A stretch of 63,722 bases of DNA, counting the filler, from Reclinomonas americana ATCC 50394 (Eukaryota), in assembly GCA_048213135.1 (NCBI GenBank). It is 17 parts of 17 records of this genome, joined end to end, with 100 filler letters (N's around TTAATTAATTAA, not from the genome) between each part and the next. Parts side by side here need not be neighbours in the genome. Positions count along the whole stretch, not along the records: positions 33,354 to 38,777 come from AFZH01023485.1; positions 38,878 to 44,288 come from AFZH01023486.1; positions 44,389 to 45,473 come from AFZH01023487.1; positions 45,574 to 47,524 come from AFZH01023489.1; positions 47,625 to 51,560 come from AFZH01023490.1; 12 more parts are not named here. One strand, 5' to 3'. Below are positions 33,254 through 50,920 of this stretch, one piece after another (positions within the stretch are counted from its first letter, which is position 1; the number at the start of each line of letters is the position of its first letter). A program made the position numbers and the translations under genes. Under the pieces are notes generated by a model, which saw only the letters and a list, made by a program, of their open reading frames with translations, was not told where the DNA came from and searched no databases.

Positions 33254-34698
33254 NNNNNNNNNNNNNNNNNNNNNNNNNNNNNNNNNNNNNNNNNNNNTTA
33301 ATTAATTAANNNNNNNNNNNNNNNNNNNNNNNNNNNNNNNNNNNNNNNNNNNNTCCGCTCTGACTTGCCAACCGGGATCGAGAACGATCCACCGACCAGG
33401 CCACCCATCGGGAAACACGACACGCATGTGTCCACCCATGAATAGATTGCCGAGCACGTGTCTGCAGTCTTCCATGGCCACCAGCATCATCACTCGACAG
33501 AGACGGCGGCAGCCAAGGTGCGCACATCACCGATCCGCTCCGACTTGCCAGCCGGGATTGAAAACGATCCACCGACCACGCCACCATCGCACATCACGAC
33601 ACGCATGTGTACATCCACCCAGCCACGCTCTCCATGACGTGCACGGCCTGCATGGATGAGGTGAGTGGGAGGGAAAGAGGAAAGAAAGATCAAGACGAAC
33701 AAGGCCACGCACCTGCTTCGTGCATGGTGGGATGCGAGTGGGGAGCCGAGGTGACAGCCGGAAACGGGGAATGCACAGCACGTCTGCAATCATTACGGAA
33801 CAACGAGAATGGCCTGCCCCTAAGATGCCTGCATGTCGGTACACTGTGAGGCAAGAATGGAGGAAGGAGAGAGACGTCGACATCTGCTCTGTCTCACTGA
33901 CAAACACACCGATCAGCACCTGATACCAACACGCGTTTGGGCAAGAGGCAAGCCGAGGGAAGCTTCTGTACACATAACCATCCTGCAAAGGAGAGGGAGA
34001 GTAGAGTTAGCATGCAGTCAGGCCATCTCACACACTTCGGAGTCGGGATGCTCACCATGATGGGCTGCCCAACGCGATGACAGCCGGCGCATCTTGAGCA
34101 GATACTCGGATCGAGCGTGTGCGGCAAGGAGGGGTGGATGGCTGGGGAAGTAGATGAGCGCACAAAGGAGGGAGCCATTGGAGAAAGAGAGTGACTCTGT
34201 AAGGGACAGAAAAAGCGGGATCTGAATGACATGCATTTCTTCGCGATCGGGGCGGAAGGAGAATGTTCACGGCGCACGTGCACAACGGGAAGCAGAGCAG
34301 TGATGCCAAAGTGGTGCGCAAAAGAAGACGCGAGGAAATAGACAACGGCGGCTCGCCCTCCTGAGGCACATACATGCACGACTCATGGCGCAAGCACAGC
34401 AGACTTTACGACGAGACGAAAAAGACACAACAGACTACCAAGTGCTTAATCGCGCTCGCATACACAAATGGAGGTGAGAAAGAGGCACGCACACAGAGGG
34501 AGACTTGCTTCACGACCGCACACTCCCATTCACAAGACAGGGCAACAAGCACGGGAGAACAATTCATCATCAACCGCAATCTCTCTGTCGTCCTCTGTTC
34601 CCCCACCTGCATCCCGCATGATCACCCAGTCTCCCTCGCAAGACACGAACCAACTCACAATCACCAGCAGCAACCCTCCCTCCCTCCGACTCACCGTC

Positions 34699-35859
34699 TC
34701 AGCACCGGAAAAGGACGACCTCGGCATCCTCGACGATGAAGCAGCGCAGAACCAGCTCGGGAAGGCATCGTGAATCTACTTCTTCCTCCTGCATCTCTTG
34801 CACAGCCTGCATGGCCGAGCGCGCGGCGTCGAGTTCGAAACGAGCAAGGCCACGCGGTGTGGACCACACTCGCACGGTATTGTCTTTGCCACCCGAACTC
34901 ACAATGTGCTGACCATCGGGAGAGACGGCCACAGACGACACCCATCCAGTGTGCCCATCCAACCGCCGCACCTCCTTGCCACTCTCTAGAGACCATACCC
35001 TAATGGTGCCGTCCCCGCACCCGCTCACGATATGTTGGCCGTCGGGAGTGACGGCGATACAATACACCCATGAAGTGTGTCCCTCGAAGCGTCGCACTTG
35101 GTCTCCACTCATCAGCGACCATACTCGCAGGGTGCGGTCTCCACCCCCGCTCACGATGTGCTGACCATCAGGGGTGACGGCGACACAATACACCCATCCA
35201 GTGTGTCCCCGCAGCCGTCGCACTTCCTCCCCGCTCGCCAGCAACCACACTCGCACGGTGCTGTCTCCGCTCCCGCTAACAATGTGGTGACTATCAGGGG
35301 TGACAGCGACTGACCACACCTTATCGGCGTGTCCTTCCAGCCGTCGCACCTCCTCCCCACTCGCCAGCGACCACACCCGCACTGTGTTATCGTAGCTGCC
35401 GCTGACAATATTAATGTGCTGGCCATCGAAGGCGACGGCGACGGACATTACAAAGCTAGTGTGTCCCTCCAGCCGTCGCACCTCCTCGCCACTCTCCATC
35501 GACCACACACGCACGGTACAGTCTCCACACCCACTCAATATCTGCTGGCCTTCGGGGGTGACTGCGACAGACCACACCGGACCAGTGTCTCTCTCCAGTC
35601 GTCGCATTTCTTCTCCGCTCGCCAGAGACCACACGCGAATCATCTTGTCCATGCATCCACCCACAATGTGCTTGCCGTCGGGAGTGACGGCGACCGACTG
35701 CACCACAGCGAGACTCTGAATGATCTGTGCCGACCATTCGCGGTGAGACGCACAAACACAAACACACAAACAACAACTGCACACATGCACAAGCACACGA
35801 ATGAACGCACAGACACCAACCACGCAAAAGTGCGCACACATTCACACCTTTGTTGTCAT
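34699..35859 (-). CDS. Stand-alone 7-blade WD40 protein with highly conserved internal repeats and a conserved helical tail (copy 1; exons 35848-35859 and 34699-35724)
   Basis: MTTK|IIQS, seven GHTxxVxxVAVTPDGQHIVSGxxDxTVRVWSLASGEEVRRLE-type repeats, then RGLARFELDAAR..CLPELVLRCFIVEDAEVVLFRC*. Confidence 0.9.
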
Positions 35860-49445: not shown

Positions 49446-50149
49446 CAGACACGGTTGATTTCTCATCCACACCCCACGGCGCACAAACACGCACGCGTAC
49501 GTACCTCCAAAAGATGCCCGTGTCGCCATATCCAGCAGGTCATCTTCTTTTCTCCTTCTTCTCCTCCTCCTCTTCCTCAAGGAGAAGACGATGAAATGGC
49601 ACAACGTTAACAGCAATGACTGAGGGCCGCTAACGAAATTCGGTGGAGGCGAATTGGGATCAATAATCGTCAGCAGATGGAGGAGGTGGAGGTGCGAGTC
49701 GCGCTCCCTGAGTGTTTCTTGCATCATCAACCAGAGCGCCTGTGTGAGCAGGAAACCATGCTGATGAGCGAGCGTGAGGAGAGAGAAAAAAAAAAGAGAA
49801 ACAGGACGATGGCCTGCTGCGGTGTGGAGGTTTCTCTTCTCTTCGTCTCTCTAGCGACCAGTCTTTCCCTCCCTCTCTCCCACACCGACACCGCTTCTTG
49901 CGTCAAGTACACGAAGATTGATCTTCCTTCTGTGTTCTGCAAGCCAACGGCTCAAAATGGCAGCAACAGCAACCACACACACACGAATTCGAAGACATTC
50001 ACTCGTTGCGCATCGGAAGAATAGAAAACGGGACAAGCGGCGGACAGCACGGCCGTGAGAACAAAGTGGGTGGAGAGAGAAGAGAAAGAGAGTAGGGATG
50101 ACGAATGAACGAGGGAAGGAAGAGTGAATAAAGAAAGGATGGAGAAGGA

Positions 50150-50920
50150 ATTGAGCGGGGATAAAGAAGGAAAGGAGCTCAAGCGGGAAAGAGGCGAAGA
50201 AGGAAAGGATGCGTAATGGGGAGAGGAATGAGGGAGGGACGCAGATAGAAAGGAGCGGGGAAGAAAAAGAGAGCGGGAGTGGGAAGAGGAAGAAAAAAAG
50301 AAAGAGGCGAAGAAGGAGCAGAGGGAAAGGAATGGGGGAGAAAAAAGAGAGAGGGAGTGGGAGAAGGAAGAAATAGAGAAAGAGGCGAAGAAGGAAGGGA
50401 TGCAGAGGGAAAGGAGCGGGGAAGAAAAAAGGAAAGGGGGTGGGAAGAGGAAGAAAAAGAGAAGAGGCGAAGAAGGAGCAGAGGGACAGGAATGGGGGAG
50501 AAAAAAGGAAAGGGAGTGGCAGCTGCAGGAGAAGAAAAAGAGAAAAAGACGATGAAGGAGCAGAGGGAAAGGAATGGGGAAGAAAAAAGGAAAGGGAGTG
50601 GGAGGAGAAGAAAAAGAGAAAGAGGCGAAGAAGGAAAGGATGCAGAGGGAAAGGAGCGCACGAGGAAGAGGAAGAGAGAAGAGAAAGAGGCAGGTGACGG
50701 ACGATGCACAATGTGCGTAATGGGGAGAGGAATGAGGGAGGACAGGAGTGGGGAAGAAGAAGAGGCGAAGTAGGATCCTATAGGAAGGGATGCAGAAAGA
50801 AAGGAGCGGGGAAGAAAAAAGAGAGCGGGAGTGGGAAGAGGAAGAAAAAGAGAAAGAAGCAAAGAAGGAAAGGATGCAGAGGGAAAGGAGCGCTCGAGGA
50901 AGAGGAAGAAAGTCGAAACG
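50150..50920 (+). repeat. Purine-rich degenerate minisatellite
   Basis: Repeated AGAGGCGAAGAAGGA..CAGAGGGAAAGGA..GGGGAAGAAAAAA units. Confidence 0.8.

Follow-up and report, generated by a model that had tools for sequence, protein, structure and literature searches.

Repeated sequences in the genome of Reclinomonas americana ATCC 50394 (GenBank assembly GCA_048213135.1) carry short insertions of a distinctive form, in which a word X, present singly in other copies of the same repeat, is replaced by X-X'-X, where X' is the reverse complement of X, and an X of length k brings an insertion of 2k bases. These insertions are described here from a window of 63,722 bases, the whole stretch of DNA that was analysed, which consists of 17 contigs (1.1-10.5 kb each) and 16 identical linkers. 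Perfect events total about 17 across 17.8 kb of the five repeat-rich contigs at 33354-51560, and each is limited to one copy of its repeat. The comparison of copies supports the view that the insertions are copy-specific and were probably templated by the adjacent word, and on the best reading each event would be a separate one, arisen in an individual copy after the copies had diverged.

Copy-specific insertions and their frequency

The copies were compared by self-BLAST, by a strict catalogue of paralogue-specific insertions, by three-way and pairwise MAFFT alignments, and by a nine-unit alignment of a 178-bp repeat. The three-way alignment covered the copies of a WD40 locus at 33565-35900 (copy 1), 36760-38777 (copy 2) and 38878-41000 (copy 3), and the pairwise alignment set 41754-44288 against 45574-47524. 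All 13 X-X'-X motifs listed in an earlier note on this DNA were found letter for letter at their coordinates, and its claim that the paralogous sites have a single X was borne out: for each motif at least one copy lacks exactly 2k bases (6, 8 or 10), and at the last two listed sites (50520 and 50771) the X of the paralogue carries one mismatch, in agreement with the note. The three-way alignment yielded four further perfect cases, together with two copy-specific insertions of six nucleotides (nt) that carry one mismatch (Table 1). Two direct copies of the flanking word are kept at 17 of 17 sites, the paralogues having one X, and at the listed sites the block between the two matches the reverse complement of X exactly. 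The words themselves are varied and include GAC, TCG, AAT, GAT, GGC, ACG, CTT, GAG, GTG, ACA, TGA and CAG.

The anatomy of the insertions is uniform. The inverted copy abuts X directly, with zero loop and zero spacer, and the length spectrum is sharply peaked, with about 15 events at k=3, one at k=4, one at k=5 and none longer, while none of the nine 4-nt insertions fits k=2. The events are concerted, X becoming X-X'-X in one go; one-step products, consisting of X-X' only, are represented by 2 of 33 three-nt insertions that form an inverted copy of the flank, against about one expected. Iterative fold-back, adding one inverted copy per round, was rejected because one-round products occur at chance frequency and two-round products are common, and simple slippage is excluded by the two insertions that carry pyrimidines into purine-only repeats. 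Two units of the 178-bp repeat, the most similar pair (95% identical), both carry 6 inserted nt, which fall in one and the same alignment column and at the same break point, TGA|ACA, where the left flank matches as template in one unit (TGA-TCA-TGA at 49224) and the right flank in the other (ACA-TGT-ACA at 48868). Single insertions of other forms were also seen, among them a change from GAC to GAC-GTC at 45030-45035 in one 178-bp unit and an untemplated, TGA-free insertion of the four nucleotides TGCA at 45752-45755, missing from the paralogue at about 41925; each belongs to a class that occurs at chance frequency.

The strict catalogue holds 87 paralogue-specific insertions of at least 3 nt with clean flanks, 16 of which are 6 nt long, and 9 of these 16 are perfect X-X'-X; among the remaining seven, one is an alternative placement of the event at 35407 and one is a one-mismatch case. 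By our own calculation a random 6-mer would fit X-X'-X at a given site with a chance of about 4/4096, or about 0.001 per insertion, and the form is thus far commoner among indels than chance, one of the two points on which the earlier note had let its proposal stand or fall.

For bare motifs the degree of enrichment varies with the control. The window contains 65 X-X'-X motifs, against 19.4±3.8, 18.9±4.9 and 38.5±6.6 in per-contig Markov sequences of order 1, 3 and 5, respectively, and the control patterns X-X-X' and X-X'-X' show no enrichment (25 each against 19-33). Words of the form X-N3-X, with 2265 in the real sequence, lie far above the Markov chains owing to codon periodicity and low-complexity runs, and a local control was therefore used, in which the palindrome XX' followed by X at offset 0 is compared with in-frame offsets of 3 to 30. 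Over the whole window this gave 55 non-trivial motifs against 30.9±6.3, and by region 23 against 6.0 at 33354-51560 (largest offset value 16), 31 against 21.2 at 1-33253, which is weak, and 1 against 3.7 at 51661-63722, which is none. A control that shuffled the middle triplets globally (55 against 41±6) was discarded, since purine-rich and pyrimidine-rich stretches become mixed in it. Enrichment over shuffled controls, a check proposed in the earlier note, therefore appears at all Markov orders and in the local control, but its size depends on the control chosen.

These figures bound the claim in two ways. The process had been called pervasive and dominant: X-X'-X is indeed the leading class among non-slippage insertions of at least 6 nt, in these repeats only, but it does not spread across the window, its excess being concentrated in the five repeat-rich contigs, and "pervasive" is better read as dominant among the insertions of those contigs. 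The suggestion that it might also explain many short palindromes fell away, for palindromes stand at expectation (6-mers, 987 against 986.6±37; 8-mers, 277 against 266.5±18; 10-mers, 67 against 71.8±9; 12-mers, 13 against 21±4), and X-X'-X therefore cannot account for a general abundance of them. With a local baseline of about 31, roughly half of the 55 motifs are due to chance. Five motifs were examined and rejected as insertions: 31513 sits within a gapless alignment to LIS1, 32582 and 32681 are located in Ala/Ser codon runs, and at 34275 and 41950 the paralogues differ by substitutions only, with length unchanged. The motifs cluster weakly at 200-400 nt, with 15 neighbour gaps of at most 200 nt against 8.6±2.5 (p=0.013).

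Table 1. Insertions of the X-X'-X form located by comparison of repeat copies; lower-case letters mark mismatches.
Motif	Position	Insertion	Location and effect	Copies compared
GAC-GTC-GAC	33873..33881	6 nt	WD40-locus copy 1 only	copies 2 and 3 (about 39190) without
TCG-CGA-TCG	34241..34249	6 nt	WD40-locus copy 1 only; added here	6-column gap in copies 2 and 3
AAT-ATT-AAT	35407..35415		in frame, two residues added (DGQHINIVSGS vs DGQHIVSGG) in intact WD40 open reading frame 34699-35841 (-)	at least 10 without
GAT-ATC-GAT	37443..37451		WD40-locus copy 2 only; added here	
CGA-TCG-CGA	37813..37821		WD40-locus copy 2 only, within 10-nt palindrome GATCGCGATC; pre-insertion state ambiguous; added here	
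TCG-CGA-aCG	39031..39039	6 nt	WD40-locus copy 3; one mismatch; alternative reading TTCG-CGAA-CG	
GAC-GTC-GAC	39106..39114		WD40-locus copy 3 only; added here	
CTC-GAc-CTC, then GAG	about 39415	6 nt	copy-specific; one mismatch	
ATCG-CGAT-ATCG	40504..40515	8 nt	frame of third WD40 copy shifts exactly there	at least 10 without
GGC-GCC-GGC	42317..42325	6 nt	compared with paralogue at about 46150	one without
ACG-CGT-ACG	44697..44705	6 nt		one without
CTT-AAG-CTT	44813..44821		one 178-bp repeat unit	7 units without
GAG-CTC-GAG	44932..44940		one 178-bp repeat unit	
GTG-CAC-GTG	45281..45289		one 178-bp repeat unit	
ACA-TGT-ACA	48868..48876		one 178-bp repeat unit; same alignment column as 49224	6 without
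TGA-TCA-TGA	49224..49232		one 178-bp repeat unit	5 without
GAT-ATC-GAT	49330..49338		one 178-bp repeat unit	
CAG-CTG-CAG	50520..50528		pyrimidines introduced into otherwise purine-only repeat	
TAGGA-TCCTA-TAGGA	50771..50785	10 nt	purine-rich repeat; sole motif with k=5 in the window (expected, about 0.1)	

Possible origins of the insertions

The earlier note had offered three mechanisms, namely double template switching, fold-back end joining at staggered breaks, and hairpin-type transposon excision footprints. Polymerase switching is the less favoured of these, since a length peak at k=3 and a perfect palindromic junction with no loop sit better with a hairpin or a staggered break. We tentatively prefer, as a possibility still short of being probable, an origin by hairpin joining at breaks with a 3-nt stagger, left as the excision footprints of transposons. 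On this proposal a double-strand break would leave the same 3-nt word on both of its ends, as the triple structure demands, since X must be present on each side. The doubled word could come from the target-site duplicates that remain after a cut-and-paste transposon that duplicates 3 bp of its target has excised; this would be the simplest source. Alternatively it could come from a filled-in 3-nt staggered cut. The ends would be capped by hairpins, and the off-centre opening of each hairpin would yield palindromic (P) nucleotides; the perfect palindrome without a loop fits the opening of a covalently closed hairpin. If the left hairpin were opened p nt and the right one q nt from the tip, the joint would read X, p palindromic bases, q palindromic bases, X, and for a 3-nt X, by our own derivation, any p+q=3 would give exactly X-X'-X, a geometry that could explain why the inverted block is as long as the unit. 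Were both hairpins opened at 2 nt, the resulting 3' overhangs would have terminal bases that are always complementary, and the pairing of one base would lead to the same product; Artemis prefers to open hairpins at +2.

According to the accessible part of one source, hAT, Transib, MULE and RAG enzymes form hairpins on the flanking DNA, host nucleases (Artemis, for example) open them, and end joining seals the opened ends, with footprints remaining (PMC5499845). CACTA elements are described, in the portion available of another, as having 3-bp target duplications and variable footprints (PMC6379663). A rough rate argument bears on the copy number of such an element: at roughly one event per kb, against about 100 substitutions per kb between copies, the insertions run at about 1% of the substitution rate, and a low-copy element outside the window could therefore suffice. 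Among candidate element types, Harbinger-type elements were rejected since X is not TAA or TTA, and Tc1/mariner-type footprints since the palindrome tracks the flank and not a constant element end.

A number of results weigh against an origin as transposon footprints. The search for transposases that the earlier note had proposed came back empty, with zero transposase domains in 260 of the 318 open reading frames (ORFs) of at least 100 residues in the window, and 32 further ORF queries, some of them overlapping, likewise gave none. Across the whole window three pairs of terminal inverted repeats with 3-nt flanking duplicates were found, against about seven expected, and apart from linkers and microsatellites it contains no long inverted repeats. 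No occupied site, in the sense of a large copy-specific insertion at or near any of the sites, was seen among the paralogues compared (which are not alleles), and the contig ends are microsatellites or tandem repeats, not the shared ends of an element. Were hairpin opening stochastic, partial footprints would be expected too, but they are not enriched: X-NN-X words with two palindromic bases number 42, 55 and 60 of 1580, against about 99 each (1/16), and the 4-base partial form numbers 2 of 1529. The one-mismatch motifs that would represent older events show no excess (351 against 400±31), so that, apart from the two insertions with one mismatch, no age series is demonstrated, and the excess of X-X'-X is itself limited to five repeat-rich contigs.

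An unlikely alternative is that a DNA polymerase switches template twice, either in replication or in break-induced repair: the nascent strand would copy X, copy back off the complementary strand and then resume at the beginning of X. In terms of the four-point model, points 3 and 4 would coincide, as would points 1 and 2, with the former pair lying before the latter. In form the product is a micro inverted triplication, and tandem arrays and a multicopy gene family, the places where the events occur, are expected to undergo recombination-associated synthesis. [quoted passage not shown] An intrastrand fold-back, however, needs a loop, whereas the inverted copy here abuts X without one, and an interstrand switch needs microhomology, whereas the paralogous pre-insertion sequences have neither inverted repeat nor microhomology. 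The length spectrum likewise argues against switching, peaked as it is at three with nothing at k=2 and only two events above three, as does the fact that forms with a spacer or asymmetry were not found, except possibly at 39031.

Rather improbable, in our estimate, is a transposon-independent cellular activity that makes 3-nt-staggered or hairpin-capped breaks, the repair of which writes a flank-templated 6-bp palindrome, X-X'-X; the insertions would then be a lineage-specific, hitherto undescribed signature of an endogenous nuclease and its repair pathway. Such an activity would leave the same anatomy as transposon footprints, with a loop-free palindromic junction and a fixed k, and would fit the lack of any transposon found in 62 kb; the weak clustering suggests break-prone patches, to which the shared break point at 48868 and 49224, with opposite flanks as template, may be added. 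Against it, the window offers no protein candidate, and a low-copy transposon outside the window is the simpler account of the same data. We know of no enzyme that makes such breaks with X-X'-X repair, and none was found in the literature searched.

It appears improbable that the insertions are an artefact, whether from amplification, from library preparation or from the assembly of a fragmented draft genome. An artefact is suggested by the make-up of the window from short contigs, by the fact that the verified events are all perfect or nearly so and confined to a single copy, with no surplus of decayed copies, by one event that frameshifts an otherwise open WD40 reading frame, and by the near-absence of motifs from the last five contigs. 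The two copy-specific insertions with one mismatch (39031 and 39415) speak against it, as does the distribution of events over coding sequence. Seven of the nine events in the WD40-locus copies are non-coding and two coding, which weakly indicates purifying selection and hence real mutations, and no verified event lies inside conserved exons of the HMG-CoA reductase or LIS1 genes; this scarcity in coding parts and absence from conserved exons lean towards real mutations. We are aware of no way in which errors of sequencing or assembly would put 6-nt palindromic insertions, templated by the flank, into a consensus.

The chance co-occurrence of two overlapping 6-bp palindromes, which does hold for about half of the 55 non-trivial motifs and was shown directly at the five rejected ones, has a negligible claim on the insertions themselves, being already refuted at the paralogue-verified sites, where it fails both for 17 sites whose paralogues are short by exactly 2k nt and for the 9 of 16 in the catalogue.

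Relation to known systems and significance

By analogy, X-X'-X appears to resemble most closely the excision footprints of transposons (hAT, Transib, MULE and CACTA) and the P nucleotides of V(D)J joining, although membership of this class is unproven since no element was found. The likeness lies in the retention of both direct copies of the flank with flank-palindromic bases between them, in a fixed short word, and in the loop-free palindromic junction that hairpin opening and end joining produce, as far as the accessible parts of PMC5499845 and PMC6379663 describe it. The differences are that no element, transposase or occupied allele is seen in the window, that the inverted copy here is uniformly complete where a mixed spectrum is usually reported, and that the density reaches about one per kb in five contigs.

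The other comparisons are more distant. Short-range template switching under the four-point model shares the reverse-complement copy of adjacent sequence as a single insertion; the 3-5 nt unit seen here, however, is far below the sizes detectable in those studies, judging by the portions available (PMC7954356, PMC9435742), and it differs further in its lack of a pre-existing inverted repeat or microhomology and in its sharply peaked lengths. The small inverted triplications linked to FEN1/rad27 have the same DUP-INV-DUP order, but the arms given in the accessible part of PMC13334657 run to about 148/160/148 bp, the spacer being 30 bp and the junctions 6 bp, against 3-5 nt and no spacer here; X-X'-X is formally the smallest possible inverted triplication. 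Templated inverted insertions made by fold-back in yeast resemble it as very short inverted duplications templated beside a break, yet in the available text of PMC11724301 they are mostly 5-34 bp, microhomology-primed and leave a loop, and they are duplications, not triplications, whereas X-X'-X has a third direct copy and a junction free of any loop. The literature searched, which did not extend to subscription journals, yielded no account of a 3-nt X-X'-X signature.

If real, the insertions would give a mutational signature that is clean, simple to score and fixed in its 3-nt unit, and that standard alignment and indel models would misread as random insertion. As transposon footprints they would testify to heavy past cut-and-paste traffic, with neutral repeat DNA bearing about one footprint per kb, in a eukaryote of which little is known; as a repair signature they would point to an unusual route of hairpin or staggered-break repair. 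A transposon-independent process, if that were the true source, would dominate non-slippage insertions, seed palindromes that resemble restriction sites, give proteins two-residue insertions of the pattern "aba" and cause frameshifts in a fast-evolving NACHT/WD40 gene family. Whatever the source, the events create 6-bp palindromes, and their effect on proteins depends on k: those with k=3 add two residues in frame, as at 35407, whereas those with k=4 or 5 break reading frames, as at 40504.

Gene content and other features of the window

The linkers between contigs consist of 44 N, TTAATTAATTAA and 44 N, the first at 3355-3454 with 15 further sites, and they account for 16 k=4 "TTAA" motifs returned by the motif scan, which were set aside as not biological. 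Microsatellites and tandem repeats lie at the contig ends, as expected of a short-read draft.

An HMG-CoA reductase gene is interrupted by GT-AG introns, one of them purine-rich; its product has a best relative at 76% identity and named matches near 70%, which span animals, fungi and several groups of protists. At 7050-7335 (+), the gene's first observed intron is nearly pure purine (GGGAAGG-type), and a similar composition recurs in tandem repeats at 42.4-43.4, 46.2-47.0 and 50.0-51.0 kb. A LIS1-like gene encodes a protein that, compared with human LIS1, has an Ala/Ser/Thr-rich low-complexity insert of about 60 residues between two WD40 blades (32520-32700 (+)). A caspase-NACHT-WD40 gene occupies 53014-56536 (+), with a caspase (Peptidase_C14) fragment upstream, followed by NACHT, a pentapeptide-repeat match and about seven WD40 repeats, and at the DNA level its WD40 part shares 68-75% identity with the three WD40-locus copies (33-41 kb) but carries zero X-X'-X insertions. 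Within those copies, the first 150 bases of a contig (38878-39027) are 98% identical to the interior of the neighbouring contig (33565-33714), after which identity falls to about 77%; this tract could reflect recent gene conversion or an assembly boundary effect.

Five X-X'-X motifs lie at 8818-9249, four of them inside an exon-like ORF of 169 residues at 8888-9394 (-) and the fifth 70 bases off; those in the ORF read V-D-V, I-D-I, P-R-P and, out of frame, D-P-D. The protein has one weak relative only among 1.84 billion representatives, and its motifs are counted here as motifs, not as verified insertions. An exact search of metagenome contigs with a 22-mer of the 178-bp repeat gave 0 matches. 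Finally, a 12-nt tandem array (GGCAGCACTGGT-type) runs across a contig break at 27188-28000, and in several of its units a T-to-C change creates the 8-nt palindrome CACCGGTG, by substitution and not by insertion.

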